A DNA stretch of 64,000 nt, from the IMG/VR virus record IMGVR_UViG_3300044796_000656; one strand, given 5' to 3'. The translations under genes were made by a program, and so were the position numbers. The stretch's first letter is position 1. Every line of letters starts with the position of its first letter. The notes under the pieces are model-generated. The model was not told the DNA's origin. It did no database searches and saw nothing but the letters and a program-made list of their open reading frames with translations. The DNA comes from a virus (taxonomy: Duplodnaviria; Heunggongvirae; Uroviricota; Caudoviricetes). This document shows positions 7,013-40,980 of this stretch, piece by piece.

Positions 7013-8626
7013 ATGACTTTCTGGAAGCGAATCACGAAGTTTGCCAACTGTCTGGTTGGCACGGCGGCGCTAGTCGCTCGCGACAACTTCGTTGATGTCG
7101 CGATGGCGCTCACTATGCCGCAGGTCAATAACAAGTTGCAGTTGATGTTCCCACCCCGGCCGCAGAGCGCGTTCTTATCACAGCGCCTCGCGGCCCGGAC
7201 GGTGGACGGAGCCGTACTCGAAGGCCAGGAAGGCTGGCAGAAGCTGGCCATCAGGAAGGGCCTGCCTGATTCTAATACAAAGGAGAAGCGCCTTGGGATT
7301 GAAAACGAACCGCACCGAGTCGATGGCTTCTCGGGCAAGATTGAAGAAGGCTACGGCAAGGGCACGAAGCAGTTGCTCACTGATGAAACAGTCGTGGTCA
7401 AGGTCAACGGACAGACACGCTTTGCTCGTCTCAACTACCATCAACACGATGCAGAACGGGCGGGCCTTCATTACGACCTTGTCGTTGAAGGAGTTCGTCC
7501 AGGAACTCCTAAATGGGAACTGCACGTTCCCCGAGGAGATTACAAAGGACGCTACGCATTCATTCAAACTCCCCGAGGCATGCTGATCAACCTCATGCGG
7601 GATCATGGTGAGCAGTTTGCCAAGCCCGCGATGACGTTGAAAGATGAAGCATTCCTGGATTATGTGCAGGCCAATCGAAGCCTGTACGACATCACCGGCA
7701 AAAAAGATGGTGCGTCTGCTTCAGTAACGATCGCTAATTATCGTGCCCACTTCCGTTCCCATCGGGACGGCGGCCAGACTTACTATGACCGGCTGCCTGA
7801 ACTGGAATTCATCAACAATCGAGCGCCGTTCATGCTGTACCGGAAGTTGTTCCCCGGCCCCGGTCAGAATGGCACGAAGTTGGTTGGCGAACTAGTTCAT
7901 CTCGATGGCGCCGCGCGCCAGGGCGGCATTCTGAATTCGTTGCCCGATAAGGCCGTTAAGATCCAGATCGAGCGCGGCCACAGCGAATTCTACGCCTGGG
8001 ACATCGAACGATTCCGAGGGCGCGACCTGTCTCGTATGTCGTTCGCAAAGCGTGAGCGTTACTTGAACGACGCCATTGCTGAGATCGGGCGTTACAACAG
8101 GCACTATCACAGCGTCGAGCATTGCCCGGACAGTATGACTGCCAGGGAGTTCTACGAGTATATCGTTGCCCAGGATCTGCCACACGGTGAGGGCGTGGTC
8201 ATCAAGCCAAAGAACTCGATAGACCGTTCGTGGATCAAGATCAAACGCAGTGACACGATCGATCTGAAAGTCGTCAAGGTCTTGGAAGGCAAGCCTGGAA
8301 CGAAGTACGAAGGTTCTGCCGGTTCTCTGATCGTTGAAGGACCCACGGGCGAACAGGGCAGAGTTGGCAGCTTCCGAGTTGACGACCAGCAGAGGCAGTG
8401 GATCTTCGATAACCAAGATCTCCTGGAAGGTCAGATTGCTGAGATTGAGGCCTTTGAGATGACCGAGCGCGGTGTACCGCGCGCCGGGCGTTTCGTTAGA
8501 TGGCATCCCTCGAAGTCCGAGGGCGCTCTGCTGATGTACGCCGAGACCTTGAGCGGCGGCGAAAGCCGGGAAGCCATGATGAATACTAAGTACGCGCTAA
8601 TTCAAGCAGTTAGGAGAGCCGCGTAA
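7013..8626 (+). CDS. ATP-dependent ligase (nucleotidyltransferase motifs I, IV, V) with an N-terminal domain resembling the LigD 3'-phosphoesterase module
   Basis: Motifs GKKDG (KxDG), EGVVIK and WIKIK. The N-terminal part (LHYDLVVEG...WELHVPRG) resembles the LigD phosphoesterase HYDxRLE / WAVPKGPS motifs. Confidence 0.7.
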   Translation: MTFWKRITKFANCLVGTAALVARDNFVDVAMALTMPQVNNKLQLMFPPRPQSAFLSQRLAARTVDGAVLEGQEGWQKLAIRKGLPDSNTKEKRLGIENEPHRVDGFSGKIEEGYGKGTKQLLTDETVVVKVNGQTRFARLNYHQHDAERAGLHYDLVVEGVRPGTPKWELHVPRGDYKGRYAFIQTPRGMLINLMRDHGEQFAKPAMTLKDEAFLDYVQANRSLYDITGKKDGASASVTIANYRAHFRSHRDGGQTYYDRLPELEFINNRAPFMLYRKLFPGPGQNGTKLVGELVHLDGAARQGGILNSLPDKAVKIQIERGHSEFYAWDIERFRGRDLSRMSFAKRERYLNDAIAEIGRYNRHYHSVEHCPDSMTAREFYEYIVAQDLPHGEGVVIKPKNSIDRSWIKIKRSDTIDLKVVKVLEGKPGTKYEGSAGSLIVEGPTGEQGRVGSFRVDDQQRQWIFDNQDLLEGQIAEIEAFEMTERGVPRAGRFVRWHPSKSEGALLMYAETLSGGESREAMMNTKYALIQAVRRAA

Positions 8627-8883
8627 TGGGAAACAACGCGACCGTAGTAGTTCGGACAGACTCCCTGAGTTCTGTCCTTGAGGACAGTCTTGGTTTCGCA
8701 CAGCATCTTTGGAACGCCGTTCAATCGGCAGGTTGCAGGCACGCTCCGATGGAAGCCGATGCAACCTGTACTGATTGCGGCGTAAAGGTCGGAGGTTACC
8801 ACCACCCAGGATGCGACCAAGAAGAATGCCCTCAGTGTTCCATGCAATTGCAGTGCGACTGCATTCCAACCGAGGAGAACTAA
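8626..8883 (+). CDS. Cys/His-rich small protein
   Basis: Translation contains CTDCG...HHPGCDQEECPQC. Confidence 0.45.
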   Translation: MGNNATVVVRTDSLSSVLEDSLGFAQHLWNAVQSAGCRHAPMEADATCTDCGVKVGGYHHPGCDQEECPQCSMQLQCDCIPTEEN

Positions 8884-12583: not shown

Positions 12584-12922
12584 GCAAGAGGATCGTGGGA
12601 TGATTTCACAGAGAAGCATGGCTTTAATGACGGAGAAGCAACCGAAGACCGGGATTTCAGGGTACGAACGGAGATCTGCAAGCGTCTGAACGAACTGCCG
12701 GAGATGATGCAAGCCAAGATCCGGGCGGTGGAGTTCGACCGACCCGGTATGCATAACGGCTGCCTGATCGCTGCTCTGGCGAACCACGACGGCCTTTCGG
12801 ACGAAGCCCTCCTGAACAAATGGCTTACGACGGACATGAGGGAATCTGAGCTTCCCGATGGAATTGAGATCAGCGAGATCATCTCGGATGCGTACGACGA
12901 GGTTGACAACAAGAAGGAATAG
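12581..12922 (+). CDS. hypothetical acidic protein
   Basis: 113-aa ORF. Confidence 0.5.
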   Translation: MARGSWDDFTEKHGFNDGEATEDRDFRVRTEICKRLNELPEMMQAKIRAVEFDRPGMHNGCLIAALANHDGLSDEALLNKWLTTDMRESELPDGIEISEIISDAYDEVDNKKE

Positions 12923-12925
12923 CAA

Positions 12926-13405
12926 ATGAAACGCTGGATATTGACAGACACGCATTGGAATCATGAAGCGATGATCACGCGTGGCTGGCGGCCAGCAAAT
13001 TATCAAGAGCGAAGCCTGGCGAATATCCGCAGACTGGTAGCACCGGAAGACAAAGTCCTTCACCTTGGAGATGTAATCTTCGCGCGGTCGGCGGAATTGC
13101 AGGCGATTCTTTTGAGCTTGCCAGGGATTTGGGAGCTGGTCAAGGGAAACCACGATCATCGCCGGGATCAATGGTATCGGGACATGGGTTTCGCAGCCGT
13201 TAACGATGCAGCAGTAATCGGTGACGTTTATCTGACGCATGAGCCCGCAGGCTGTTTGCTGCGGGATACCAGGCTCAACGTTCACGGGCATCTGCATGAC
13301 GATCTGCACCGGGTTGAAGAAGGTTATCCCGAACCGTGGCATAGACTACTTGCCTTAGAACTGACCGATTATTGTCCGGTCCTGTTCGACGAATTCACAA
13401 GGTAG
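12926..13405 (+). CDS. calcineurin-like metallophosphoesterase
   Basis: Motifs DTHWNH, GDVIFAR, GNHDH and GHLHDD. Confidence 0.7.
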   Translation: MKRWILTDTHWNHEAMITRGWRPANYQERSLANIRRLVAPEDKVLHLGDVIFARSAELQAILLSLPGIWELVKGNHDHRRDQWYRDMGFAAVNDAAVIGDVYLTHEPAGCLLRDTRLNVHGHLHDDLHRVEEGYPEPWHRLLALELTDYCPVLFDEFTR

Positions 13406-13455
13406 TTGCGGTATTCAAGTTTAGGGCCAACAAATCAATCGTGGGAGTCATGTGA

Positions 13456-13698
13456 ATGTCTGAGTCGAAGATCAGTTGGCGGCTTCGGTACGTGGACCGT
13501 CCGTGGTATCTGGTTCTGATGATCTTGGCAACTCCGCTATCCCTCAGTGTCCCATTTATCGGCTGGGCAGGAGCAATCATAGCGTGGTGGCAATACTTTC
13601 GGGACCACAAGACAGTACGCGCGCTCAAGGCTGAGAACGAGCGCCAACGAATTATGACCGAGTCCGGAGTTCAGGCTCGGCAAACGGTACAACCCTAA
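13456..13698 (+). CDS. small membrane protein
   Basis: Two hydrophobic helices. Confidence 0.45.
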   Translation: MSESKISWRLRYVDRPWYLVLMILATPLSLSVPFIGWAGAIIAWWQYFRDHKTVRALKAENERQRIMTESGVQARQTVQP

Positions 13699-15320: not shown

Positions 15321-16334
15321 ATGAGTTTAGGACCACAAGCAAGCCTACTTGACATGACTCTGAAAGAGCAACACGCCAAGTATCTAGCAGCCGGACTTGT
15401 TTGCGACCTCTGGGATCGTCTGAACTTCCCAAGGGGAACCCAGTTAATCAAGCAAGCTCAAGACCATGGGTTTGATCTTCCCCAGGAAGTCATTCACATC
15501 TTCTGCGGCGGCTCTAACCTCCACGGCGCCAAAGACGATTCAGGGAAAAGCGATCTGGATATCTGCGGGATCTTCGTTGAACCCCCGGAGCTGGCGCTCG
15601 GGATCGACCGCGATGAGCACTTCATCTCGAAGACCGCGGCCGAAGGCGAACGCAATCAGTCCGGCGATAAAGACTTTACCATCTATTCGCTGCGCAAGTG
15701 GGCGGCTATGGCCTGCAATGGCAATCCCAACGCGCCGCTGTTCCTGTTCGCCCCCGTCGATCCCAAAGGCCAAACAACGGTCTGGGATGCCTATATACGT
15801 CCTAGCGCACATCTGTTCCTGGCCAAGACCACCCTGGTAGGGGATTACGCCAAAAGCGGCCTCTTGGGCTTCGCCAAGGGCATCTGGAAGCGCGCGGAGG
15901 CGGCGCTACGAGGCAAGGAATACCACGAAGCCGGAGGCTTCCTTGGATTTGCCCGCAACATGCTTTACAGGATGCAGGGCAAGCGCGGCCGGGGCAAGAA
16001 GGGGCAGCGGCCGGAACTGGAACTGAAGTTCGGCTACGACACCAAGGCGGCGATGCACATGATCCGCGCCATGTTTGAAGCCATTGAACTGGTCGAGACC
16101 GGGAAACTTGCGTTTCCTAATCGTCAGGTCGAAACCCTGAAGGCGATACGGCGCGGCGAGTGGTCAAAGACTGTCGTTGAGCAGTACTTCGAACAACTCG
16201 AAAGCGAACTGAAGAAACTGGTGCGAAAGTCTGACCTGCGCAAGGAAATTGATCGCGCGGCGGTTTCGAAGCTGGTATCTCGGGCGTACCTCGCCCATTG
16301 GAGACAACGTGAATTCTTTAAGCGTTCTCAATAG
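15321..16334 (+). CDS. Pol-beta superfamily nucleotidyltransferase
   Basis: CGGSNLHG-x8-SDLDICGIF matches the h[GS]x...[DE]h[DE]h nucleotidyltransferase signature. C-terminal helical region. Confidence 0.6.
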   Translation: MSLGPQASLLDMTLKEQHAKYLAAGLVCDLWDRLNFPRGTQLIKQAQDHGFDLPQEVIHIFCGGSNLHGAKDDSGKSDLDICGIFVEPPELALGIDRDEHFISKTAAEGERNQSGDKDFTIYSLRKWAAMACNGNPNAPLFLFAPVDPKGQTTVWDAYIRPSAHLFLAKTTLVGDYAKSGLLGFAKGIWKRAEAALRGKEYHEAGGFLGFARNMLYRMQGKRGRGKKGQRPELELKFGYDTKAAMHMIRAMFEAIELVETGKLAFPNRQVETLKAIRRGEWSKTVVEQYFEQLESELKKLVRKSDLRKEIDRAAVSKLVSRAYLAHWRQREFFKRSQ

Positions 16335-17912: not shown

Positions 17913-18776
17913 TTGAGAATGACGAATTATGGTGATCCGGGAACGATAGTTCAGGAAAAGACCAGTAAGACGAAGTTGATCAAGGTCCTGGCCGGCGGAG
18001 TCATCGGAGTAGTGGTATTCTTGACGTCCTTCATGGTCGGTTGCATGTCCATGGTCACGATTCCGGCCGGACACGTAGGCGTGGTCACGAAGTTTGGCCG
18101 CGTTACCGGACAGATGGTTTATGAGGGCATGCATTTCCTGAATCCCGTCGTCGCCGTCGAAAAGATGGACACACGGACGATCGAGCTGAAAGAGAAAGCC
18201 GATGTGCCTTCGGCTGAAGGACTCTTGATCGGCTTGGAAGCCTCGCTTCTTTTCCATCTGGACCCCGCCGCGGCGCCCAAAGTCTACCAGTCGATCGGCG
18301 TGGATTACCGCGCGAAAGTTGTCGAGCCCATATTGAGATCCGCGATGCGTGAGGCTACGGCGTCCCATTCGGCGAACGCGCTTTACTCGAAAGAACGCGA
18401 CCAGGTACAGGCTGAAATCGTGGCCGCGGTTACCAGCCAGCTTGGCGTACGCGGCATCGTTGTTGAACGCATCTTGCTGAGAGACATTGCATTGCCGGCG
18501 GCGCTCAAGTCCTCGATTGAGTCCAAGCAGCAGGCCGAACAGGAATCTTTGGCAATGCAGTTCAGACTCCAGAAGGAAAAGCAGGAGGCTGATCGCAAGC
18601 GAATCGAGGCCCAGGGAATCAAAGATTTCCAGGCAATCGTATCGCAGGGCATCAGCGAACCTCTTCTGCGCTGGAAAGGTATTGAAGCGACCGAGAAGCT
18701 GGCCTACAGCCCGAATTCCAAAATCGTGATCATCGGCAGCGGCAAAGATGGAATGCCGTTGATTCTCGGGCACTAA
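17913..18776 (+). CDS. SPFH/band-7 (prohibitin/HflK-like) membrane protein
   Basis: N-terminal TM helix followed by the characteristic SPFH core (VPAGHVGVVTKFGRV...) and a coiled-coil tail. Confidence 0.7.
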   Translation: MRMTNYGDPGTIVQEKTSKTKLIKVLAGGVIGVVVFLTSFMVGCMSMVTIPAGHVGVVTKFGRVTGQMVYEGMHFLNPVVAVEKMDTRTIELKEKADVPSAEGLLIGLEASLLFHLDPAAAPKVYQSIGVDYRAKVVEPILRSAMREATASHSANALYSKERDQVQAEIVAAVTSQLGVRGIVVERILLRDIALPAALKSSIESKQQAEQESLAMQFRLQKEKQEADRKRIEAQGIKDFQAIVSQGISEPLLRWKGIEATEKLAYSPNSKIVIIGSGKDGMPLILGH

Positions 18777-19313: not shown

Positions 19314-20555
19314 ATGAGCCAATTTGACGTCATCGACGCCGAGGACGGCAAGATCATCAAGATCTGGGCACGCGGCGTCCAGGTCGAAGACAAGGCAATC
19401 GAGCAGCTCAAGAAGACCGCGTCTTTGCCTTTTATCTATCGCTGGGTTGCTGCCATGCCGGATTCTCACTGGGGTATGGGCGCGACCATTGGTTCGGTTG
19501 TCGCAACCAAGGGTGCGATTATCCCCGCAGCAGTCGGCGTGGACATCGGATGTGGCATGATGGCCGTGAAGTTGAATCTGACACTCGGCGACCTGGGGAA
19601 CATCGCTCTTGGTACGTTGAGGGCTGCGATCGAAAAAGCAGTTCCAACCGGCCGGACGAACAATGGCGATCGCAAGTCAGATCGTGGTGGCTGGCAAAAC
19701 GTACCAGATGCTGTGGATCACATTTGGTGCCGAGACTTATCAACAGACTTTGCAGATATCCTCGAAGCGAATCCAGGTGCTAAGCCGATGAACGATGTAA
19801 ATCACCTGGCTACACTGGGAACCGGTAATCATTTCATCGAGTTGGTCTACGATGAAACCGGTCAACTTTGGGTCATGTTGCATTCTGGATCGCGCGGCCC
19901 GGGGAACAAGTTCGGTGTCTACTTTGTGAAGTTGGCGAAGGAGATATGCAAACGCTGGTTCATTCAGCTCCCTGATCCTGATCTTGCGTACATCCCGGAG
20001 GGAACTCCTGAGTACGCCCGCTACATGAAGGCGTTGCACTGGTCGATGAAGTTCGCCTGGCACAATCGGATACTTATGATGGAACGCATCATTGCTGGTC
20101 TTCAGCAGGTGATTCCAAGTCTCGATACCAGGGATGAATCGGTCCACTGCCATCACAACTACGCCGCGATGGAGAAGCATTACGGCCAGGAAGTCATGGT
20201 TACGCGCAAAGGGGCCGTGCGCGCCCAGCGCGACGAGCTGGGGATCATCCCAGGGTCGATGGGTACTCGCAGCTACATCGTGCGCGGGAAGGGCTGCCAG
20301 GACTCATTCCAGTCGTGTTCTCACGGCGCCGGCCGCGCCATGGGGCGCAAGGAAGCCCTGAAGCGGTTTACCCTCGAAGACCATATCAAGGCTACCGAGG
20401 GAATCGAGTGCGCGAAGGACGTTTCCGTTTTGGATGAGACGCCCCTTGCGTATAAAGATATAGACAGCGTGATGGCGGCGCAGACAGACCTCGTCGAGAT
20501 CGTGCATACGTTCAAACAGCTTATCTGCGTCAAAGGCGCAGGGGATGGAGAATAG
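19314..20555 (+). CDS. rtcB: RtcB-family RNA 3'-phosphate/5'-OH ligase
   Basis: Motifs MPDSHWGMG, VGVDIGCGM, GTGNHFIEL, HSGSRGPG and CSHGAGR. Confidence 0.85.
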   Translation: MSQFDVIDAEDGKIIKIWARGVQVEDKAIEQLKKTASLPFIYRWVAAMPDSHWGMGATIGSVVATKGAIIPAAVGVDIGCGMMAVKLNLTLGDLGNIALGTLRAAIEKAVPTGRTNNGDRKSDRGGWQNVPDAVDHIWCRDLSTDFADILEANPGAKPMNDVNHLATLGTGNHFIELVYDETGQLWVMLHSGSRGPGNKFGVYFVKLAKEICKRWFIQLPDPDLAYIPEGTPEYARYMKALHWSMKFAWHNRILMMERIIAGLQQVIPSLDTRDESVHCHHNYAAMEKHYGQEVMVTRKGAVRAQRDELGIIPGSMGTRSYIVRGKGCQDSFQSCSHGAGRAMGRKEALKRFTLEDHIKATEGIECAKDVSVLDETPLAYKDIDSVMAAQTDLVEIVHTFKQLICVKGAGDGE

Positions 20556-21004
20556 TCGGTGCCAATCTACGGCGGTGGCCCGGCGACTTCCTGGACGTGC
20601 AAGCACTGTGCGGGCGTGATGCGTCTCCAATCGGCGACGCCTGTATGTGGAACACATCGGCTTGCCGGGACTGGAAACGATACACGGATAAGGACTTCAA
20701 CGTAGGTCACCTATACTAACCTTAGATGATCTGCAAGTTACATCGACGGCAATCCCCTAACCGGGATGACGGTCCTAGTCAGGGACGCCGTTCTTGAGGT
20801 TCGCGGCTGACTAACGTGGTCAGCGTAGTAGCTGCGGGTACAGGGGAGCCTCAGGGAGGCGTAGAACCCGAGGCCCCAGTGCGAACCAAGAGTTATGCAG
20901 GTGAGCGGTGCAATACCTGTCACGGTGACGTGGCGGGCGGCTTTACCCGGAGGACTCGAACCTGAGTCGGCTGCCGGACCCGACCGCGAATCTGCTCCTG
21001 ATTT

Positions 21005-21076
21005 CATAACGCTCGTGAAAAGACCAGCATTAGTTGGCATTTTCGGACAGGGGTTCGACCCCCCTCATCTCCACCA
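21005..21076 (+). ncRNA. ssrA: tmRNA acceptor piece (T-arm, 3' acceptor strand, discriminator A and CCA) of a circularly permuted ssrA
   Basis: GGAC-AGGGG-TTCGACC-CCCCT-CATCTCC-A-CCA, closely parallel to the E. coli tmRNA 3' end GGACGCGGGUUCAACUCCCGCCAGCUCCACCA. The 5' boundary is uncertain. Confidence 0.55.
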
Positions 21077-21100
21077 TGATTCTCCCGTTGTTCACTATAC

Positions 21101-21385
21101 GGGGATGTCACGGCTTCGACGGAAATGGACAATAGATGTGGACGAGCCGGATGGCGTGGCCACCGTGGCGCAAGCTGACCCCAGTCGGTAACGACGGGGT
21201 ACAACGGACACGCAGACGATCAAGTGCCAAAAACACTGTCGCCGTCAAGGTCAATGTCACGGTTTTCCCGGCTCGCCGGGCGGCCCTGGCAATGGAACTT
21301 GCCGCCTAGTCTTCGGACTAGGAGGGGCTAAGGACTGAAGCCTTTTAATCCAAGGGGGACCGATGGCGGTCCCCCACAGTTCACT
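21101..21385 (+). ncRNA. ssrA: tmRNA coding piece (5' acceptor strand GGGGATG, tag reading frame ending ...ALAMELAA-TAG at 21307..21309, stop codon inside a hairpin)
   Basis: GGGGATG-TCACGG-CTTCGACGG resembles the tmRNA 5' end GGGGCUGAUUCUGGAUUCGACGGG. GGGGATG pairs perfectly with CATCTCC 24 nt upstream and includes a G3-U70 wobble. The tag frame ends LAA. The 3' end is a strong 9-bp hairpin at 21353..21379. Confidence 0.55.
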
Positions 21386-21401
21386 CTGAGGATATGTATC
21401 C

Positions 21402-27329: not shown

Positions 27330-27532
27330 TGTGCATGGCTTGCGTTGAAGCGGGAGCCTGGGTCGTTGCGGCTGGTGCCACTGTCTTGCCGTTGGTCATT
27401 CCGGCGATCCGAAAGAAATGCGAGAAGTTCATAAGCTGCGGTGGTGAAGTCAGGTCCAACACTACAGTCTGCAAAACTGTCATCGCGGGTTCAAATCCCG
27501 CCCGCAGCTCCACCGATCCCGCACTCGAATGA
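27329..27532 (+). CDS. small membrane protein
   Basis: One TM helix. 67 aa. Confidence 0.35.
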   Translation: MCMACVEAGAWVVAAGATVLPLVIPAIRKKCEKFISCGGEVRSNTTVCKTVIAGSNPARSSTDPALE

Positions 27533-28093: not shown

Positions 28094-30247
28094 ATGCCGA
28101 AGATCATACTTGCCGCAGACCAGTTTTGCGGAGCTGGTGGGACATCGTTGGGATTTACCCGGGCATGCTACAAGCGCGGGTTAAGCCCGGACCTGCTCGC
28201 CATCAATCACTGGCCGCTGGCAATCGAGACTCATTCGGAGAACCTGGCGTATGCACGTCACATGTGCATGTCGCTCGATCAGGTGAATCCGCGTGAGGCT
28301 GTTCCAGGCGGCCGTTTACATCTGTTGATGTCCTCGCCCGAATGTACGCATCACAGCGTCGCGCGTGGCGGAAAGCCTATTAACGACCAGTCGCGCGCTA
28401 CCGCGTGGCACGTCATTAAGTGGGCGCAGGAACTCTGGATCGCCAACATTCTTGTGGAGAACGTCCCTGAGTTCCAGTCGTGGGGTCCGCTGAAGTCCGA
28501 TCTTACTCCGGACAAACGATACAAGGGGCAGTTGTTCATGTCCTGGATCGAGAACCTCAAGGCTCTCAACTACAACGTTGAGTGGCGTGAACTATGCGCC
28601 GCCGATTATGGAGATGCGACGACGCGTGTCCGGTTGTTTGTGCAGGCCCGAAAGAAGCACCTCGGGCCGGTCACCTGGCCGGAACCAACTCATGCTCGGC
28701 CCATAGAAGTAGGCGCTGATCTGTTCTCGGCCGCAAAGAAACCGTGGCGATCCGCACGGGAGATCATCGACTGGGACATCACCGGAAGAAGTATCTTCAA
28801 CCGCAAGAAGCCCCTGTCACCCAACACGATCAAACGGATTGCAGCCGGACTGAAGAAGTTCGGCGGCGCCGCGGCCGAACCGTTCCTGGTCATGCTTTAT
28901 GGAACTGGAATGGTCCGCGACGTCGATCGGCCGCTTCCGACTGTGACAGCCGACGGCCAGCATATTGCCCTCTGTGAACCGTTTGTCGTCAATCTGAAGA
29001 AGGGAAGCATGCCTCGTAGCGTGGACAAACCCTGCGCGACCCAGACTACGAAGCAGCACCAGTACCTCTGTGAGCCGTTTGTTCTGGGCCAGCAGTCGTG
29101 CAGTGCTCCCCGCTCGACGGATCTTCCGATCCCGACAGTGGCGACCGCGGGTGCCATCCGGGTATGCGAGCCGTTTCTTATTCCGCAGTTTAGTGAACAC
29201 GCTCCTCGATCCATCGATCGCCCTATCGGGACGGTCACAACCACCAGCCGGGGAGTTGGCTTAGTGGACTTCGTGATCGGTATAGACCACCAGGGCGGAG
29301 ATGGCTCTCCGCGCTCTGTGGAAGAACCGATCACCACGATGACCACCAAGGCCCGTCATTGTGTTGTTGAAGCCGCGGCGGAGCCCGTAAGCCAGTTCCT
29401 CGTCCATTCCGGAGGGCCATCGGTTGCCGAGCGTTCGGTAGACCAACCCTTGAACACCATTCTTACACGCGAGCACATGGCCGTTGTCGAAGCCGTGGCG
29501 CTCAAGGTCGATGCTCCGGCTTTCCTGGTCAATGTCGGAGGCCCGGAAGGCTCCGGCCGGCAGCCGAAGTCGGTGGACGTGCCCTTGAATACCGTCCTGA
29601 CAGAGAACCATACGGCGGTCGTCGAACCATTCATTATGGCGGTTAATCATGGAAACGATGGACCAACGGCAGATGCCCGGCGCTGCAAGTCAATGAACGA
29701 TCCGTTGCCGACGTTGACCACGGAACAATCGTTTGCGATCGTCGATCCCTTCTTGATGGCTGTCAACCACAGCGAAACCGGGAATGGGGGTGCCCGCTGC
29801 TACACCGTCGATGATCCTCTGGGAACGCTTACGACCAAGGGGTCGTTTGCGGTGATCGATGCCGATGCTCAGAAGGTCGATCAGACTTTCCTGGTCAAGT
29901 ATTACGGGTCTGGGATTGCGACCTCGGTCGATGAACCCCTGGACACCGTGACTACGAAAGACCGCTTTGGCCTGGTGACCATCAACGGCGAGCAGTATGC
30001 GCTCGACATCCGCTTGCGCATGTTGGAACCAAAGGAGTTGGCGGCGGCGCACTCGATGGAGGGTCACATCTTCAAAGGGCCACGTTCGATGCAGGTAAAG
30101 CAGATCGGCAACGGCGTTCCATCAGGTCTCAGCGAAGCCCTGACAGGTAACGTCCTCGATCAGTACGCCGATGTCATCGACGAAACCGATGTCCCGATAG
30201 ATCTTTTGATAGCCGGGGCCGGTACGACTATACCTGCAACTGTGTAA
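28094..30247 (+). CDS. DNA (cytosine-5) methyltransferase with a tandem-repeat target-recognition region
   Basis: Motif I FCGAGG, motif IV SSPEC, motif VI ENV. Motif IX LRMLEPKELAAAHSM and motif X QIGNGVP. Between motif VI and motif IX there are about 10 tandem repeats of 35-40 aa. Confidence 0.85.
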   Translation: MPKIILAADQFCGAGGTSLGFTRACYKRGLSPDLLAINHWPLAIETHSENLAYARHMCMSLDQVNPREAVPGGRLHLLMSSPECTHHSVARGGKPINDQSRATAWHVIKWAQELWIANILVENVPEFQSWGPLKSDLTPDKRYKGQLFMSWIENLKALNYNVEWRELCAADYGDATTRVRLFVQARKKHLGPVTWPEPTHARPIEVGADLFSAAKKPWRSAREIIDWDITGRSIFNRKKPLSPNTIKRIAAGLKKFGGAAAEPFLVMLYGTGMVRDVDRPLPTVTADGQHIALCEPFVVNLKKGSMPRSVDKPCATQTTKQHQYLCEPFVLGQQSCSAPRSTDLPIPTVATAGAIRVCEPFLIPQFSEHAPRSIDRPIGTVTTTSRGVGLVDFVIGIDHQGGDGSPRSVEEPITTMTTKARHCVVEAAAEPVSQFLVHSGGPSVAERSVDQPLNTILTREHMAVVEAVALKVDAPAFLVNVGGPEGSGRQPKSVDVPLNTVLTENHTAVVEPFIMAVNHGNDGPTADARRCKSMNDPLPTLTTEQSFAIVDPFLMAVNHSETGNGGARCYTVDDPLGTLTTKGSFAVIDADAQKVDQTFLVKYYGSGIATSVDEPLDTVTTKDRFGLVTINGEQYALDIRLRMLEPKELAAAHSMEGHIFKGPRSMQVKQIGNGVPSGLSEALTGNVLDQYADVIDETDVPIDLLIAGAGTTIPATV
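28913..29990 (+). repeat. about 10 tandem degenerate coding repeats (R-S-x-D-x-P-x-x-T-x-T-T ... V-E-P-F) inside the methyltransferase
   Basis: Repeated peptide units visible in the translation: RSVDKP..TQTT, RSTDLPIPTVAT, RSIDRPIGTVTT, RSVEEPITTMTT, RSVDQPLNTILT, KSVDVPLNTVLT, MNDPLPTLTT, VDDPLGTLTT, VDEPLDTVTT. Confidence 0.75.
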
Positions 30248-30835: not shown

Positions 30836-31270
30836 ATGGCTCTCAATCGTTATGAAGTAATCGGAAACGTCGGGAAAGATCCCGAGATCATCAAGACCAA
30901 CGGCGGCAAGACCATCGCAAAGTTTTCGGTCGCCACTAACGAGTACGCCGGTAAAGACGGCGGCGGCAAAGCCAAATACGAGACTGAGTGGCACAACGTT
31001 AAGGTATTTGGGTCGAGCGCAGAATACGTCGAGAAGCAACTCAAGGCCGGCGATGTCGTCTTTGTGTCGGGCCGCCACAAGACGGAGACCTACGACAAGA
31101 AGGAAGGTGGCGGCAAGGGCTACTCGATCTTCTGCCAGGTCGGCCTCAATGGCCGAGTCGAACGCGTATCCCGCAAGGAAGGCACCTCGAACGGCAACGG
31201 CAACGGAAATGGTAACAGCTCCAGCGCCACGGAAAAGGCTCCCGAGGTCGAGGAAGAAATTCCCTTCTAG
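30836..31270 (+). CDS. ssb: single-stranded DNA-binding protein
   Basis: OB-fold SSB core (RYEVIGNVGKDPE...EWHNVKVFG). Gly/Asn-rich linker. Acidic tail ending EEEIPF. Confidence 0.85.
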   Translation: MALNRYEVIGNVGKDPEIIKTNGGKTIAKFSVATNEYAGKDGGGKAKYETEWHNVKVFGSSAEYVEKQLKAGDVVFVSGRHKTETYDKKEGGGKGYSIFCQVGLNGRVERVSRKEGTSNGNGNGNGNSSSATEKAPEVEEEIPF

Positions 31271-31312: not shown

Positions 31313-31900
31313 ATGAATGAACTGGTCGTCGCATCTCGTTTAATGGTGACATCCAGCCTGAATCGAGTCTCGCGTGCGGGATGCTCGGTGCGGGCTTCTG
31401 ACGGCTCCGTTCATACCGTCCTGTTCGATAATCACGATCCGAATGTAGTCCTGCTGATGGATTCCATGGATGAATTTGACGTCCATGGCCGGCTCTACCA
31501 TGTCTTTGTTGGCAGGTACCTGGACAGGATTAACGGCAAAGATATGGAAGTCTTCCGCCTTCATGGGGATATCTGGCCGACAAGCCTGCGTTCAGACGAA
31601 ACCCCGATGTGTTTTGGCGAAGAGGTTCACAGGATCGAAAGACTTGATCGGATTACTCGCCATAGTTTCGAACATCTCGGAGGTTTATTCATAACCGATT
31701 CAACCCAATTGAGTTGCGTCTTGCAGGCCGGAGTTCCGCCTGTGCATTGTTCGGTGGATTTGATTCCAGACCGGACGAAATACAAAGCTCTATTCCCGCA
31801 CTTACCTCACCCTGGGATGATCCGGGACGGCAACGACACGGATGCCGTGGAGGAGTGGATTCGAATGACACGGCCGCCTAAACCAGTGAGGGTTATGTAG
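31313..31900 (+). CDS. hypothetical protein
   Basis: 195 aa. Confidence 0.5.
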   Translation: MNELVVASRLMVTSSLNRVSRAGCSVRASDGSVHTVLFDNHDPNVVLLMDSMDEFDVHGRLYHVFVGRYLDRINGKDMEVFRLHGDIWPTSLRSDETPMCFGEEVHRIERLDRITRHSFEHLGGLFITDSTQLSCVLQAGVPPVHCSVDLIPDRTKYKALFPHLPHPGMIRDGNDTDAVEEWIRMTRPPKPVRVM

Positions 31901-32058
31901 ATGGAAAGCCCGCAGGTAACTCCCCAACAGATCCATAATTTGTGGCGTACGGGTAAAACCTTTAATGAGATCTGCGAGTTTACAGGTCTGAGTCTTCAAG
32001 CGGTAATGCAGGCATTTAATGCCCCGAGGAAACATGACAAAGAAACGAAGCCAAACTG
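31900..32058 (+). CDS. small protein (52 aa) with helix-turn-helix-like segment
   Basis: Translation reads TFNEICEFTGLSLQAVMQA. Confidence 0.3.
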
Positions 32059-32576
32059 AACCGCACCAGGTTTTCGGCGGAAGTCAAGGTGTGCCTAACA
32101 ATCGCCGTCGTATGGACCCTCCCGAGGAGAAACGGATCTACATCGTTGTTCCCCAGACGGTCCAGGTTCTTGGGAAGTCTGGTTTCCCGAGAAGTGCCCG
32201 CAAAGTGATGCGCAACTTCCGTATGGAACACGGCCGCCTGATGGCGCAGTGCGCGCATGTCGCGCGCCGGCTGGAGAACGAACAGCTCAACGAGAAGTTC
32301 TGGGACGAGAGAGACCCCAGTACTCGCAAGACATCTGCGTATAAAGAGATCACGACCATCGTTCTCAGCGTCCGTAACAGTCGGGAACTGGAGAAGGTCG
32401 CTGTCGAGGTCGCTCTGACCGGCGGCCGGAATCTGTATTTCCCGTTCGCCGACACCAATCCGGAGTTCTACGGGACCAGGGAGAAGGTCTTTACGGCCTT
32501 TGCCATCGGTCCGATCGAGCGCAGCAAGATCGATCCCGTACTCGGGCATCTTCCGCTCTATGGAGATCAGGCATGA
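32034..32576 (+). CDS. PTH2-family peptidyl-tRNA hydrolase
   Basis: GKSG...GRLMAQCAHVA aligns with the PTH2 GKGKIAAQCSHA motif. ...AFAIGP...GHLPLY aligns with VLAIGP..GHLKL. Confidence 0.6.
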   Translation: MTKKRSQTEPHQVFGGSQGVPNNRRRMDPPEEKRIYIVVPQTVQVLGKSGFPRSARKVMRNFRMEHGRLMAQCAHVARRLENEQLNEKFWDERDPSTRKTSAYKEITTIVLSVRNSRELEKVAVEVALTGGRNLYFPFADTNPEFYGTREKVFTAFAIGPIERSKIDPVLGHLPLYGDQA

Positions 32577-32917
32577 CGCCGAAAAAGATCATATTCGTCA
32601 CCGTCGATGATGGTGTCGCCGAAGTGGACACCAAAACCGTTCCTGAGGGCGTCGAGGTTCGCGTTCTCGACTTCGATTCTTTGAAAGAAGATCCGAAGGG
32701 CTTCAACGGGGAATTGGATGAGATCGACCGGAAGTATCTTGACGACCGGCATCCCAGGCAACTCACCAAACTTACCGATGTCCTGGTAGCGGCGGAAGCC
32801 GAAGGCGAAGTGTGCATCGAGTGCGGACAGCCCATCAACGACTGCATCTGCGATGAAGAAAACAACTTCCTTGGCGAAGATGATGACGAAAAAGAGGAAG
32901 AAGAGGAAGGTGCATGA
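32573..32917 (+). CDS. hypothetical acidic protein with CxxC..C motif
   Basis: 114 aa with an E/D-rich tail. Confidence 0.5.
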   Translation: MTPKKIIFVTVDDGVAEVDTKTVPEGVEVRVLDFDSLKEDPKGFNGELDEIDRKYLDDRHPRQLTKLTDVLVAAEAEGEVCIECGQPINDCICDEENNFLGEDDDEKEEEEEGA

Positions 32918-33276
32918 GTATCAACCAGCATTTGAATGCCACGATCGCCCTGATCCATGGCGACATGAAGTTGGTGCGGGAGATCCTGCGCTCGCCGGGG
33001 TCCGACGTCAAGAACGTACCGCAAGTCGTGAGTGCGTTGGCGCAGGCGTTGGATGAAGTACGCGCGGATGCGGTCACAGTTGCCAAACATGAGGCTGACA
33101 TTGCGTTGGTCATCAAGGAATTGACTGCCGTCCAGGTGGATTCCCTGGGCATAGAACCTGGTGAAAGTCTGACACCTGATCTGAAGAATTCGTTTATGAA
33201 CGGTGTGGAAGCCGTCGAGAAACTCATCAGTGACCGCATCAAGCGGCACAGGTACGAACTGCGTCATGACAATTGA
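32914..33276 (+). CDS. hypothetical protein
   Basis: 120 aa. Confidence 0.5.
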   Translation: MSINQHLNATIALIHGDMKLVREILRSPGSDVKNVPQVVSALAQALDEVRADAVTVAKHEADIALVIKELTAVQVDSLGIEPGESLTPDLKNSFMNGVEAVEKLISDRIKRHRYELRHDN

Positions 33277-33757
33277 ACTCTACGGTTCCAGTATCCTGCG
33301 CGAGGTGTGTGATCCGATCGAAGACTTCGGTTCCGACATGCTTATGAGCCTGGTGCGCGGGATGAAGGACGCGATGAACAGCAAAGAAGGTGCTGGTCTC
33401 GCCGCTCCCCAGGTCGGCTTCAATGAACGCATGTTCGTGTTGAACGAGCAGTTGGCCGGCGGAAAGTGCGATACCGTGATCTGCAATCCCGTGTTGCTGC
33501 GGGATATGGGCAAGGATGTCCAGCAGGAAGGCTGTCTCAGTGTTCCGGGTTTCTTTGAAAACGTCGAACGAAGCCGCAACATCGAGTTCGAGTATTTTAC
33601 GGCCGAGGGTATTCAAAAGCAGGTGTTCGTTTCCGGATTCCTTGCCCGATGCATTCAACATGAAATGGATCATCTGGACGGGAAACTGTTTGTCGATTAC
33701 CTGAACAAAGACCGCCAGAAGAAGATCGAGAAGGCGATGCGAAAACTACGGGGGTAA
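33266..33757 (+). CDS. def: peptide deformylase
   Basis: Motifs GAGLAAPQVG, EGCLSVPG and HEMDHLDG. Confidence 0.8.
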   Translation: MTIELYGSSILREVCDPIEDFGSDMLMSLVRGMKDAMNSKEGAGLAAPQVGFNERMFVLNEQLAGGKCDTVICNPVLLRDMGKDVQQEGCLSVPGFFENVERSRNIEFEYFTAEGIQKQVFVSGFLARCIQHEMDHLDGKLFVDYLNKDRQKKIEKAMRKLRG

Positions 33758-33764
33758 AGCCAAG

Positions 33765-34265
33765 ATGGCAAGCGAATGGTTTGAGTTCAACTCCGGAAGC
33801 CACAAGGCTTGTATTGAAGATGCCGTGGCTAGTGTGGAATGCAAGTACGGCGCTACGGTGGAACGTCAAACTGCACGCGGAAATTGTGTCTGGATGGTCG
33901 TGAAGACTGTCCATTACAAGTTCATTGCCGTTGTGATCTTGATGCCGATCCACCGAGGCCGTTACTGGAAGTACAGGATCTTTGCCGAAGGCCGTTGCGA
34001 CCGACTTGAATGGGTAACGTGCCCTGAAGCATTCCTCCAAGCAACTGCTGATTCGCCCCAACGCAAGGAAGGCTGGCGCAAACTGGTTCGCGAGTATCAC
34101 CAGAAGCGCCGCCAGATTATCAAAGTAGGCGACCGAATCAGCCTGATCGGCACAAAGATCTCTGAGGTCAAGATCATCGGTGTTAATCCCCTGGTCGGCG
34201 AATACGCAGGGACCCTGTATCGGATTCCGCGCCGGCTGCTTCGCTTGGAGGAGGTTGCTTCGTGA
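33765..34265 (+). CDS. hypothetical protein
   Basis: 166 aa. Confidence 0.5.
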   Translation: MASEWFEFNSGSHKACIEDAVASVECKYGATVERQTARGNCVWMVVKTVHYKFIAVVILMPIHRGRYWKYRIFAEGRCDRLEWVTCPEAFLQATADSPQRKEGWRKLVREYHQKRRQIIKVGDRISLIGTKISEVKIIGVNPLVGEYAGTLYRIPRRLLRLEEVAS

Positions 34266-34744
34266 CAACGATAGTGATCAAAAGAAAGAAACGTTGTGGG
34301 AAACACATGTTAGAGGAGCGCGCGTTTTGCGCTCTTGACCCAGGTCACGAGGGGGACTGTTCTAAGTTTCCGGTGAATCAGGGAGTACGGCTTGCAGAGG
34401 TCGTTACGGAAGTACGAGCGAGACTAGCGTCTCTACGGGCATCCATTACGCAACTTGAGAAGTACGAGAACGAGTATCTCGGCGTGGCGTTGGTGTCATG
34501 CATGGGATCGACGGCCGGATCGCCTGATGGTTGCGGGACTCTCCTGCTAGTCAAAGAGTTGGTTTATATCCAAACATACTGGTACAACCAACCCTATGGA
34601 TGCACTGGCGGCGATTATTGGAATCTCGGAGAAGGTCAGTTTGTCTGTCCTAAGTGCAGCATACTGAACCGACTCTATGAGCGCCCGGAAGTGGTGAAAC
34701 TCAAGTCGTTCTTTAAGGAAATCAAGAAGACACACGATCGATAG
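34262..34744 (+). CDS. Cys-rich hypothetical protein
   Basis: GTG start. Several CxxC-like pairs. Confidence 0.5.
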   Translation: MTTIVIKRKKRCGKHMLEERAFCALDPGHEGDCSKFPVNQGVRLAEVVTEVRARLASLRASITQLEKYENEYLGVALVSCMGSTAGSPDGCGTLLLVKELVYIQTYWYNQPYGCTGGDYWNLGEGQFVCPKCSILNRLYERPEVVKLKSFFKEIKKTHDR

Positions 34745-34757
34745 GAACGGAGATGTA

Positions 34758-35186
34758 ATGTTCAAAGAAAACCTCAGTGTGGAACTAACCTGCCCGAAGC
34801 ATCCTGATTTTAACCCCAGAGAAGAACATCCCTTTGAGGGGTGCGCTTATTGCAGGGCGATTAACTATATAGCAGGTTGGATGAAGCGGTCGGAGTGCAT
34901 GGTGGACTCCATTAGGATGGGCCTCTATGAAGCCTCAACGAAGCCTTCGGTGAAAGAGGCAACGCCGTCTACGTCGGAGATCGCATACGTCATTACCGAT
35001 AACGAGATGCCCCGTAGTGAGGAAGAATCCACTATGAAGCTGGCGCCGCTGGTTAAGCGGAAGGTTAAGGGTGGTGTGCGAGTGAAATCAGCGCCGCGGA
35101 AGCCTTACGTTGAATCCCCTGCCGAACCTGAGAAGCCGACTGCGCCGCCGGCCAGTACTCCGGCCGACAATGGCATGTTGCTGTAA
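34758..35186 (+). CDS. hypothetical protein
   Basis: 142 aa. Confidence 0.5.
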   Translation: MFKENLSVELTCPKHPDFNPREEHPFEGCAYCRAINYIAGWMKRSECMVDSIRMGLYEASTKPSVKEATPSTSEIAYVITDNEMPRSEEESTMKLAPLVKRKVKGGVRVKSAPRKPYVESPAEPEKPTAPPASTPADNGMLL

Positions 35187-40599: not shown

Positions 40600-40980
40600 G
40601 TGAAATACAGGGTAATTTCCGAATACGAGTTTGATGTGGCTTCCCCTTCGGAAGCTGCTTTCCTGGCCTATAAGGCGTCGAAGTCCATGGCTATTTCAGA
40701 TGCCAGTTTCAGTGTCTTGTCCGACATGGAACGCTTCGAGCGTGTCACGGTAGCGCAAAGCGCACCGTTTGAGATGCTTACAGACCGCGAGCACCAGGTT
40801 GCAAAACTGGTCATGAGCGGAGCTGATAACGCCAGCATTGCAGGTGAACTGGGCATTACTTGTAGGACAGTCAAGGCCCATGTCGCGCACATGTTCGACA
40901 AACTGGGTGTACCAAACCGGGTGTCGATGGCGACACTTCTACTGAGGGCTCATCGGAAAAGTCAGGTGGTGGCTCAATGA
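40600..40980 (+). CDS. LuxR-type HTH regulator
   Basis: C-terminal HTH LTDREHQVAKLVMSGADNASIAGELGITCRTVKAHV. GTG start. Confidence 0.7.
   Translation: MKYRVISEYEFDVASPSEAAFLAYKASKSMAISDASFSVLSDMERFERVTVAQSAPFEMLTDREHQVAKLVMSGADNASIAGELGITCRTVKAHVAHMFDKLGVPNRVSMATLLLRAHRKSQVVAQ

Follow-up and report, generated by a model that had tools for sequence, protein, structure and literature searches.

A divergent PTH2-like gene encoded near a peptide deformylase and downstream of a permuted tmRNA in a large phage from peat or soil

The stretch of DNA analysed here, 64,000 nucleotides long and referred to below as the window (IMG/VR record IMGVR_UViG_3300044796_000656), comes from a large peat or soil phage that has not been cultured and covers the replication and nucleotide-metabolism region of its genome. 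The host of this phage and its relatives probably belongs to the Acidobacteriaceae. Short open reading frames (ORFs) follow one another from 31313 to 35186 in an unbroken run, all on one strand, and the genes that concern us here, including the SSB gene in front of the run, are:

30836-31270, + strand: SSB (Pfam SSB, 81 bits)
31313-31900, + strand: orf195, recognised by conserved synteny
31901-32059, + strand: orf52, a small HTH-like ORF (ORF list) that overlaps the start of the PTH2-like gene by 26 nt
32034-32576, + strand: PTH2-like peptidyl-tRNA hydrolase gene, 180 aa (ORF list, Pfam PTH2, AlphaFold)
32573-32917, + strand: orf114, a small acidic protein with a CxxC...CxC motif (ORF list)
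32914-33276, + strand: orf120, a helical protein (ORF list)
33266-33757, + strand: peptide deformylase (PDF), type 1B, 163 aa (Pfam, NCBIfam, motifs)

The PTH2-like gene, orf114, orf120 and the PDF gene are joined by stop/start overlaps of 4 nt between the first two, 4 nt between orf114 and orf120, and 11 nt between orf120 and PDF, and a scan of the + strand along these four genes found no promoter-like or terminator-like sites. Pfam matches of orf52 to MarR_2 and DUF3071 were sub-threshold, orf114 gave a weak SUI1-like match (E 4e-4), and for orf120 profile searches including Pfam, PHROG and NCBIfam found no family match. Homologs of orf114 are present in the related lineages L002 and L023, and orf120, a conserved neighbour of PDF in relatives, lies directly 5' of it in L005, L008 and L013. 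A module of SSB, orf195, in some cases orf114, orf120 and PDF is syntenic in L002, L005, L008, L013, L015 and L016, and in the window phage the PTH2-like gene is set into this module between orf195 and orf114. When the region was compared at the DNA level with 50,697 phage records, the sole match was a 50-nt stretch of PDF (Salmonella).

An earlier note on this DNA, made from the sequence alone, had proposed that a PTH2-type peptidyl-tRNA hydrolase and a peptide deformylase are encoded here. Both genes are real at the positions it gave, and both identities hold at the level of family and fold. The match to Pfam PTH2 (PF01981), at 34.9 bits (cut-off 23; E 2e-8), spans profile positions 9-115 of 115, and for Pep_deformylase (PF01327) the score was 149.9 bits against 22.8. 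The start of the PTH2-like gene at 32034 is backed by a GAGGA 3 nt upstream, and a homolog from L016, 79% identical, keeps the N-terminus MTKKRSQxEPHQVF and has no Met at the position corresponding to 32112; on this comparison we rejected the 32112 start used by some gene callers (154 aa in the JGI gene call).

Structure prediction agreed with the profile search. The AlphaFold (AF2) model was confident (pLDDT 89.5, pTM 0.83), and the top 14 Foldseek matches in the PDB were all PTH2 chains (probability 0.98-1.00, E 2e-5 to 7e-4), with TM on target of 0.64-0.72 for crystal structures and 0.45 for the NMR model 1rzw; the first match after these 14 had an E of 0.46. A fold search of BFVD matched PTH2s of phages and giant viruses, with Atu_ph07, Myrna and phiN3 at the top, and hhalign against human Bit1 gave a probability of 94.6%. 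With the single sequence, phmmer found no more than a marginal PDB match (E 0.036), and the assignment called for the family profile and the fold search. The NCBIfam equivalog cut-offs were far from reached (TIGR00283 arch_pth2, 26.0 bits vs 82; NF003314, 26.2 vs 126), and the protein is thus a divergent member of the PTH2 family and not an archaeal-type orthologue.

The best PHROG match of the protein is 1866, of "unknown function", and tblastn retrieved only gp176 of phage Tunturi 5, annotated as "hypothetical protein". Grouped at 50% identity, the divergent phage clade reached by the family profile comprises about 484 clusters. This clade, which carries an arginine at a characteristic active-site position, is essentially confined to large peat and soil phages and two Acidobacteriaceae MAGs. 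Across its loci the PTH2-like gene has no constant adjacent protein gene, and its neighbours variously include SbcD/DnaB, radical SAM, CCA-adding enzyme and response regulator genes.

The PDF reached its equivalog cut-offs (TIGR00079, 138.4 bits vs 103.95; NF001159, 151.2 vs 125) and has all three catalytic and metal-binding motifs: GAGLAAPQ at aa 42, EGCLS at aa 88 and HEMDH at aa 132. In the PDB search it aligned to residues 12-161 of the 168 of E. coli PDF, and with 26 residues beyond HEMDH it retains the C-terminal helix. In the E. coli enzyme this helix is the ribosome-docking element.

Also encoded upstream in the window are a tmRNA, a tRNA and several genes of RNA repair:

7013-8626, + strand: ATP-dependent RNA/DNA-ligase-like protein (PHROG 114; Pfam RNA_ligase 27.5, DNA_ligase_A_M 26.8 and DNA_ligase_OB_2 29.8 bits)
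15321-16334, + strand: RlaP, an RNA-repair-pathway nucleotidyltransferase (Pfam PF10127, 61.3 bits vs 23)
19314-20555, + strand: RtcB RNA 3'-phosphate ligase, immediately 5' of the tmRNA (Pfam RtcB, 400.7 bits; PHROG 1075)
20984-21400, + strand: permuted (two-piece) tmRNA with tag peptide AKNTVAVKVNVTVFPARRAALAMELAA (ARAGORN)
27435-27512, + strand: tRNA-Cys (GCA) (ARAGORN; Rfam tRNA, 62.5 bits)

The tmRNA, which the earlier note had mentioned, is confirmed by the Rfam model RF04321 tmRNA_permuted, matched in full (1-213) at 21011-21309 with 75.6 bits against a gathering threshold of 47, and its tag reading frame ends in a hydrophobic degron (...AMELAA; ARAGORN). The PTH2-like gene follows 10.6 kb downstream. 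No SmpB match was found among the about 45 window ORFs scanned, and the partner of the phage tmRNA may be the SmpB of the host.

What is new here is that a tmRNA lies closely upstream of the PTH2-like gene across several distant lineages of related phages, a tight adjacency of which we found no published mention. A permuted tmRNA (Rfam) is located 0.86-1.19 kb 5' of the gene, on the same strand, in L002, L005 and the L007-group, whose PTH2-like proteins share just 41-50% identity, and in L014 a tmRNA is located 3.8 kb upstream; in nine other lineages, defined at 80% identity, whose upstream sequence extends for 6 kb or more, no tmRNA lies nearby. With PDF lying 3' of the PTH2-like gene in L002, L005, L008 and L013, these relatives strengthen the original suggestion that PTH2, PDF and tmRNA belong to one theme. 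The 700-nt spacing of the two protein genes, also remarked on at the outset, is correct for the window (689 nt) but is not a conserved trait.

It is possible, though we think it unlikely, that the closeness of the PTH2-like and PDF genes is incidental, the two being independent auxiliary genes in a recombination-prone early region that are uncoupled from the tmRNA as well. The spacing of 0.7 kb seen here grows to 3.8-9.5 kb in L002, L005, L008 and L013 and to 72 kb in Tunturi 5; gene order is shuffled, with PDF before SSB in L002 and the PTH2-like gene between orf195 and orf114 in the window; and at many loci of the family PDF and tmRNA are both absent within 10 kb. PDF is also found in 167 phage records, most of them outside the at least 59 in which an archaeal query finds a canonical PTH2 (mostly annotated as such). 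Against this stand the four overlapping genes of the window, on one strand and with no promoter-like or terminator-like site among them, the persistence of tmRNA-PTH2 adjacency between lineages as divergent as those described above, and the presence of PDF in Tunturi 5, the sole isolate with a PTH2 of this clade. Because some lineages are without the tmRNA and the two genes are so far apart in Tunturi 5, the tmRNA/PTH2-like/PDF linkage could be synteny inherited within one phage clade, and not selected coupling.

Residue conservation in the active site was counted in 171 members of the PTH2-like family, numbered by the 180-aa form. The key residues of the window protein are R68 (for the canonical Lys), Q72, H75, D140 (the catalytic Asp), N142, Y146 and T154, with AIGP at aa 157 and GHLPLY at aa 171. 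These last two motifs had been read correctly at first, but the "GK..AAQC.HA" quoted with them is absent, the sequence being GRLMAQCAHVA, with Arg where the canonical Lys is expected. In 164 of the 171 members this position (K18 in the S. solfataricus enzyme) holds Arg, five members having Met and one Tyr, and Lys never occurs there; the lysine of the GK motif is reportedly important for catalysis in the S. solfataricus enzyme. Profile alignments match D140 (D114 in the 154-aa numbering) with the Asp of the canonical DAG motif, and this residue (D86 in S. solfataricus, D174 in yeast) is invariant (171/171), the PTH2 signature Q, H, D and T all being invariant or nearly so. Family-wide, DAGxT is replaced by D-x-N-P-x-F-Y-G (DTNPEFYG in the window), with loss of the Thr and gain of a Tyr present in 168 of 171. 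The equivalent yeast mutant, Pth2 D174A, is hydrolase-dead (PMC9892010), and was the only published confirmation of the Pth2 catalytic Lys or Asp that we found in the open-access literature, in which reviews name no residues; according to a 2026 paper, the active site of human PTRH2 is unconfirmed.

Changes of this kind might indicate that the PTH2-like protein has a shifted substrate and is a specialised deacylase, not a general peptidyl-tRNA hydrolase, a reading we rate as quite improbable; candidate substrates could be aminoacyl-tRNA N-acetylated by GNAT toxins, peptidyl- or aminoacyl-tmRNA, or another ester-linked RNA adduct. A shifted substrate would account for the altered active site as well as for the close linkage with the tmRNA, and is consistent with the co-ordination of the Lys to Arg, D-x-N-P-x-F-Y-G and Tyr changes throughout the family, with scores far under the Pth2 equivalog cut-offs, with the clear separation of a clade whose profile reached only 484 clusters, and with the tmRNA directly upstream of the gene in several deep lineages. 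However, Arg plausibly stands in for Lys electrostatically, the remaining PTH2 signature residues and the fold are all retained, and the PTH2 of phage phiCbK, which has the same N-terminal strand and insertion yet a canonical GK and DAGRT, suggests a continuum. It is also quite improbable that the Arg-type clade has evolved together with the phage permuted tmRNA into an enzyme with a function of its own, with R68, N142 and Y146 reflecting a new substrate and not drift; such an enzyme may resolve peptidyl- or aminoacyl-RNA intermediates peculiar to phage-driven trans-translation, or may deacylate toxin-modified aminoacyl-tRNAs. That the protein is catalytically inactive, with a binding or regulatory role like the non-enzymatic roles of eukaryotic Pth2/Bit1, is extremely improbable, for although the Lys of GK and the Thr of DAGxT are missing, and yeast Pth2 has a function that can be separated from its hydrolase activity (PMC9892010), the invariant Asp, the near-invariant Q, H and T, and the Tyr and Asn newly fixed beside the Asp form the pattern of a conserved, not a decayed, active site.

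The best reading of the locus, and in our judgement a probable one, is that it is part of a kit with which the phage recycles tRNAs and rescues ribosomes. As we infer its substrate, activity and time of expression, the PTH2-fold esterase would most likely cleave peptidyl-tRNA or N-blocked aminoacyl-tRNA at its ester bond during infection, acting on tRNAs that are off, or stuck on, ribosomes and returning free tRNA to the pool, while the PDF, complete and of the ribosome-docking type, would deformylate the N-termini of nascent phage proteins. These enzymes, along with the tmRNA, RtcB, RlaP and the RNA-ligase-like protein, would make up a translation-maintenance and RNA-damage-repair kit that keeps tRNAs and ribosomes available while the phage infects. 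A possible setting is that of host nucleases or toxins that damage tRNAs and stall ribosomes, which makes a counter-defence role for the kit plausible. The early suggestion that the PTH2 protein clears peptidyl-tRNA released by host abortive-infection effectors is likewise plausible; it would fit the RtcB/RlaP/ligase context and is the same as a published hypothesis, in which PTH2 in jumbo phages was described and ribosome rescue after tRNA cleavage proposed (Iyer et al., 2021, PMC7824862).

Seen against what is known of big phages, for which a translation-maintenance toolkit is already documented, this find is real and not new in kind, and the PTH2-like/PDF pair leaves the general picture of jumbo phages unchanged. 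Phage PDF and phage tmRNA were each known before, and phage PTH2 is uncommon but well documented, so that "unusual in a bacterial virus", as the earlier note had it, is overstated in view of the phage records counted above and the jumbo-phage PTH2s already published. What the PTH2 family gains is a well-defined branch that was previously unnamed, being of unknown function in PHROG and hypothetical in its sole isolate. One soil-phage lineage keeps a tmRNA, a predicted peptidyl-tRNA hydrolase and a deformylase close together, and the servicing of stalled ribosomes and spent tRNAs by big phages can now be tested in culture, with Tunturi 5 on Tunturiibacter.

Among known systems, huge phages encode PDF, tmRNA, tRNAs and tRNA-repair enzymes (Al-Shayeb et al., 2020, PMC7162821), and the likeness to the window is the presence of all of these in one large phage; the term peptidyl-tRNA hydrolase has no occurrences in the text of that paper. 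The PDFs of cyanophage S-SSM7 (PDB 3UWA) and of Vibrio phages resemble the window PDF in being of type 1B with all metal-binding motifs, and the S-SSM7 enzyme, 37.6% identical (3UWA match, 83.9 bits), differs from it in that the window PDF keeps the C-terminal helix. The cyanophage PDF is said to be without this helix.

The PTH2s of large phages compared here were those of phiCbK (gp165), Atu_ph07, mycobacteriophage Myrna (gp36), and RaK2-like and phiM12-like phages. They share with the window protein the PTH2 fold, a similar size (about 140-155 aa) and a setting in large phages with RNA-repair genes nearby; in phiCbK the canonical PTH2 is 5 kb from RtcB, with no tmRNA within 20 kb. In the window protein, as in phiCbK gp165, the N-terminal strand reads R-[IL]-Y-x-[IV]-V, and an insertion separates it from helix 1. 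The large-phage PTH2s keep the canonical GK and DAGRT, whereas the window protein has GR and DTNPEFYG, and they are found with an archaeal query, whereas the window protein retrieves only Tunturi 5 gp176. The Pth2s of archaea and eukaryotes (S. solfataricus 1XTY, A. fulgidus 3ERJ, M. jannaschii 2ZV3 and human PTRH2/Bit1 1Q7S) have in common with it the alpha/beta fold, the G before helix 1, the AQ..H in helix 1, the catalytic Asp, T..(I)GP and the C-terminal GHLxLY. The window protein differs from them in being only about 20% identical, with Lys replaced by Arg and scores below the equivalog level, and in carrying two insertions, a beta-hairpin that follows strand 1 and a variable loop that follows helix 1.

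The product of the gene at 32034-32576 (+) belongs to the PTH2 family of peptidyl-tRNA hydrolases: it passed both the PTH2 profile search and structure prediction, and the identity proposed in the earlier note therefore holds. The protein scored 34.9 bits against Pfam PTH2 (gathering score 23), and the best 14 matches of its AlphaFold2 model (31 homologs used; pLDDT 89.5, pTM 0.83) among solved structures were all PTH2 chains, from A. fulgidus, human (Bit1), M. jannaschii, P. horikoshii, T. acidophilum and S. solfataricus (E 2e-5 to 2.5e-2; next match E 0.46). The closest predicted viral structures were phage PTH2s (Atu_ph07, Myrna, phiN3) and giant-virus PTH2s. Alignment with human Bit1 by hhalign (94.6% probability) gave the same register as the family profile against PDB, placing G-R on the canonical G-K, A-Q..H on A-Q..H, the family's invariant Asp on the Asp of DAGxT, T..P on T..GP, and GHLxLY on GHLKLY. 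Public gene calls give a near-identical protein either 154 or 180 residues; the longer form, starting at 32034, is the better choice because GAGGA lies 3 nt 5' of its start and because a homolog with 79% identity (L016) retains MTKKRSQxEPHQVF at its N-terminus and lacks a Met at the alternative start position.

The active site departs from that of canonical Pth2. The motif GK..AAQC.HA, quoted in the earlier note, is not literally there; the actual sequence is GRLMAQCAHVA. Searching 1.84 billion cluster representatives with the family profile yielded 484 clusters at E <= 0.001, and among 171 aligned members the canonical Lys position held Arg in 164, Met in 5, Tyr in 1 and Lys in none. In S. 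solfataricus Pth2 this Lys reportedly matters for catalysis, in work attributed to Fromant and colleagues (2005). In 154-residue numbering (add 26 for the 180-residue protein), Q46 and D114 were present in 171/171 members, H49 in 170/171, Y120 in 168/171 and T128 in 167/171, while Asn (N116) stood in place of the DAG Gly in 153/171. The Asp corresponding to D114 is the residue whose replacement (D174A) inactivates yeast Pth2 (PMC9892010). NCBI orthologue-level Pth2 models gave the protein 26 bits, against cut-offs of 82 and 126. It also carries insertions behind strand 1 (a beta-hairpin) and behind helix 1 (a variable loop). The canonical phage PTH2 of phiCbK, gp165, has GK and DAGRT, unlike this clade, but has its first strand, R-[IL]-Y-x-[IV]-V, and the site of an insertion in common with the window protein. 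The clade therefore seems to have branched off from phage PTH2s and diverged. The co-ordinated remodelling (Arg, Asn, Tyr) leaves some room for a shifted substrate, which we consider unlikely.

That PTH2 is unusual in a bacterial virus, as had been suggested, was an overstatement. An archaeal Pth2 query found canonical PTH2 in 59 phage records, most annotated as peptidyl-tRNA hydrolase, including mycobacteriophages, phiCbK-like, phiM12-like and RaK2-like phages and Atu_ph07; Iyer et al. proposed that phage PTH2 frees peptidyl-tRNA in ribosome rescue after tRNA cleavage (PMC7824862). Peptide deformylase (PDF) matched 167 phage records, and huge phages with PDF and tmRNA were described by Al-Shayeb et al. 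2020 (PMC7162821). A tblastn search with the window's own protein retrieved one phage record only, Tunturi 5, a 309-kb jumbo myovirus of Tunturiibacter (Acidobacteriota), whose gp176 is annotated "hypothetical protein" and is not mentioned in the Tunturi paper. The best PHROG is likewise annotated "unknown function". Annotation is thus missing for this particular clade, not for phage PTH2 in general.

The gene lies in an unbroken string of plus-strand open reading frames across 30.8-35.2 kb.

Gene string around the PTH2-like gene (from the ORF list)
30836-31270, +, SSB
31313-31900, +, orf195
31901-32059, +, orf52
32034-32576, +, PTH2-like gene
32573-32917, +, orf114
32914-33276, +, orf120
33266-33757, +, PDF

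Small ORFs continue the string downstream of PDF, and a consensus scan of its plus strand found no promoter-like or terminator-like site. Stop and start overlap by 4 nt at PTH2-like/orf114, 4 nt at orf114/orf120 and 11 nt at orf120/PDF; 689 nt separate the PTH2-like stop from the PDF start, in line with the spacing of about 700 nt noted earlier. The 163-residue PDF is an ordinary type-1B enzyme (Pfam 149.9 bits; TIGR00079 138.4 against a cut-off of 104) with the motifs GAGLAAPQ, EGCLS and HEMDH, and since its alignment with E. coli PDF extends to residue 161/168, the C-terminal helix is kept. The helical orf120 product, without a family match, directly precedes PDF in the window and in the relatives L005, L008 and L013, and may be a PDF partner. 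The orf114 product combines a CIECGQPINDCIC motif with an acidic tail; its match to the N-terminal part of the translation initiation factor SUI1 is weak (E 4e-4; 20 bits, cut-off 145) and probably due to no more than a common zinc-ribbon-like motif.

Taken as a whole, the window covers phage genes for replication and nucleotide metabolism (family A DNA polymerase, helicases, ribonucleotide reductase, dUTPase, thymidylate kinase, UDG, C5 methylase) with a clear RNA-repair and translation component, which also includes a tRNA-Cys gene.

RNA-repair and translation features of the window
7013-8626, RNA-ligase-like protein
15321-16334, RlaP
19314-20555, RtcB
20984-21400, permuted tmRNA, directly after RtcB (ARAGORN; Rfam RF04321, 75.6 bits against 47)

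No SmpB was seen among the window ORFs scanned. A Band_7/SPFH protein (17913-18776) lies just upstream of RtcB, as does gp180 (12804-13634 of locus L063) upstream of RtcB gp178 (13964-15196 of L063) in phiCbK, where gp165 follows 5 kb downstream of RtcB; this same order suggests an RNA-repair module common to unrelated large phages. The C5 cytosine DNA methyltransferase (28094-30247, +, 717 aa) matches Pfam over residues 9-239 only, and residues ~290-600 hold tandem units of ~35-45 residues, EPF...PRSxDxPxxTxTT (at least 5 by regular expression, more by eye), reminiscent of multiple target-recognition domains.

From IMG/VR, metagenomes, genomes and GenBank we collected 61 loci that carry a family member; the viral contigs span 50-317 kb, and the metagenome records presumably come from JGI peat, bog and permafrost projects, judging by accession prefixes. 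Members occurred in 2 of 185,579 species genomes, both Acidobacteriaceae MAGs, so the hosts are likely Acidobacteriaceae. Among the window's closest lineages (L002, L005/L017, L018 and the L007 group), a permuted tmRNA precedes the PTH2-like gene on the same strand by 0.86-1.19 kb, confirmed by Rfam in every case tested (62-84 bits).

Permuted tmRNAs of relatives, each with the PTH2-like gene ~1 kb downstream
8457-8853, L002
8723-9142, L005
8361-8813, L007
8375-8813, L008
8444-8821, L013
844-1296, L018

For the 16-member L007 group this holds at the 11 loci with enough upstream sequence; in L014 the distance is 3.8 kb. Between the L002, L005 and L007 lineages, and between each of them and the window, the PTH2-like proteins share only 41-50% identity, and the arrangement has therefore been kept through long divergence. 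Downstream of the gene, these lineages carry PDF at a distance of 3.8-9.5 kb, usually with SSB-orf195-orf120 in front of it. The window's PTH2-like gene has itself shifted into this SSB-orf195-orf120-PDF module, and its tmRNA is 10.6 kb away. Two results argue against strict coupling: no tmRNA lies nearby in nine further lineages (defined at 80% identity) for which 6 kb or more of sequence is available upstream, and 72 kb separate the PTH2-like gene from PDF in Tunturi 5.

Several loci carried other features. L013 (CAWENG010000004.1, 3142711-3163109), from an uncultured Acidobacteriaceae MAG in which it lies inside a contig of 3.26 Mb, holds tmRNA, PTH2-like gene, SSB, orf195, orf120 and PDF; it could represent either a large prophage that has integrated or a chimera of the assembly. 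Three relatives have a NarL/LuxR-type response-regulator-like gene between tmRNA and PTH2-like gene (e.g. L005 9233-9961, L008 8913-9536); the window's homolog (40600-40980), 8 kb downstream from its PTH2-like gene, is shorter and matches the C-terminal (HTH) part of NarL-type regulators. Further translation-related neighbors are a D123/Cdc123-family ATP-grasp protein 3 kb downstream (L002 13017-13958) and a CCA-adding tRNA nucleotidyltransferase two genes upstream (L004 7923-9383).

In the best-supported reading, the PTH2-like enzyme would act on tRNAs that stalled ribosomes have released or still trap, cleaving their peptidyl (or N-blocked aminoacyl) ester; PDF would process phage proteins at their N-termini as they leave the ribosome; and tmRNA, RtcB, RlaP and the ligase-like protein would restore stalled ribosomes and broken tRNAs. 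The earlier note's observation is confirmed, and its interpretation is supported in part. The analysis shows the family, the fold, the conserved catalytic Asp and the conserved linkage; we infer what the enzyme acts on, that it is active, and that it might counter host defences that target tRNAs, the last an idea already published (PMC7824862). The recurrent adjacency of tmRNA and PTH2-like gene in a soil-phage clade is modestly new; the gene itself is new and divergent, but its type, like that of the phage toolkit around it, is already known.
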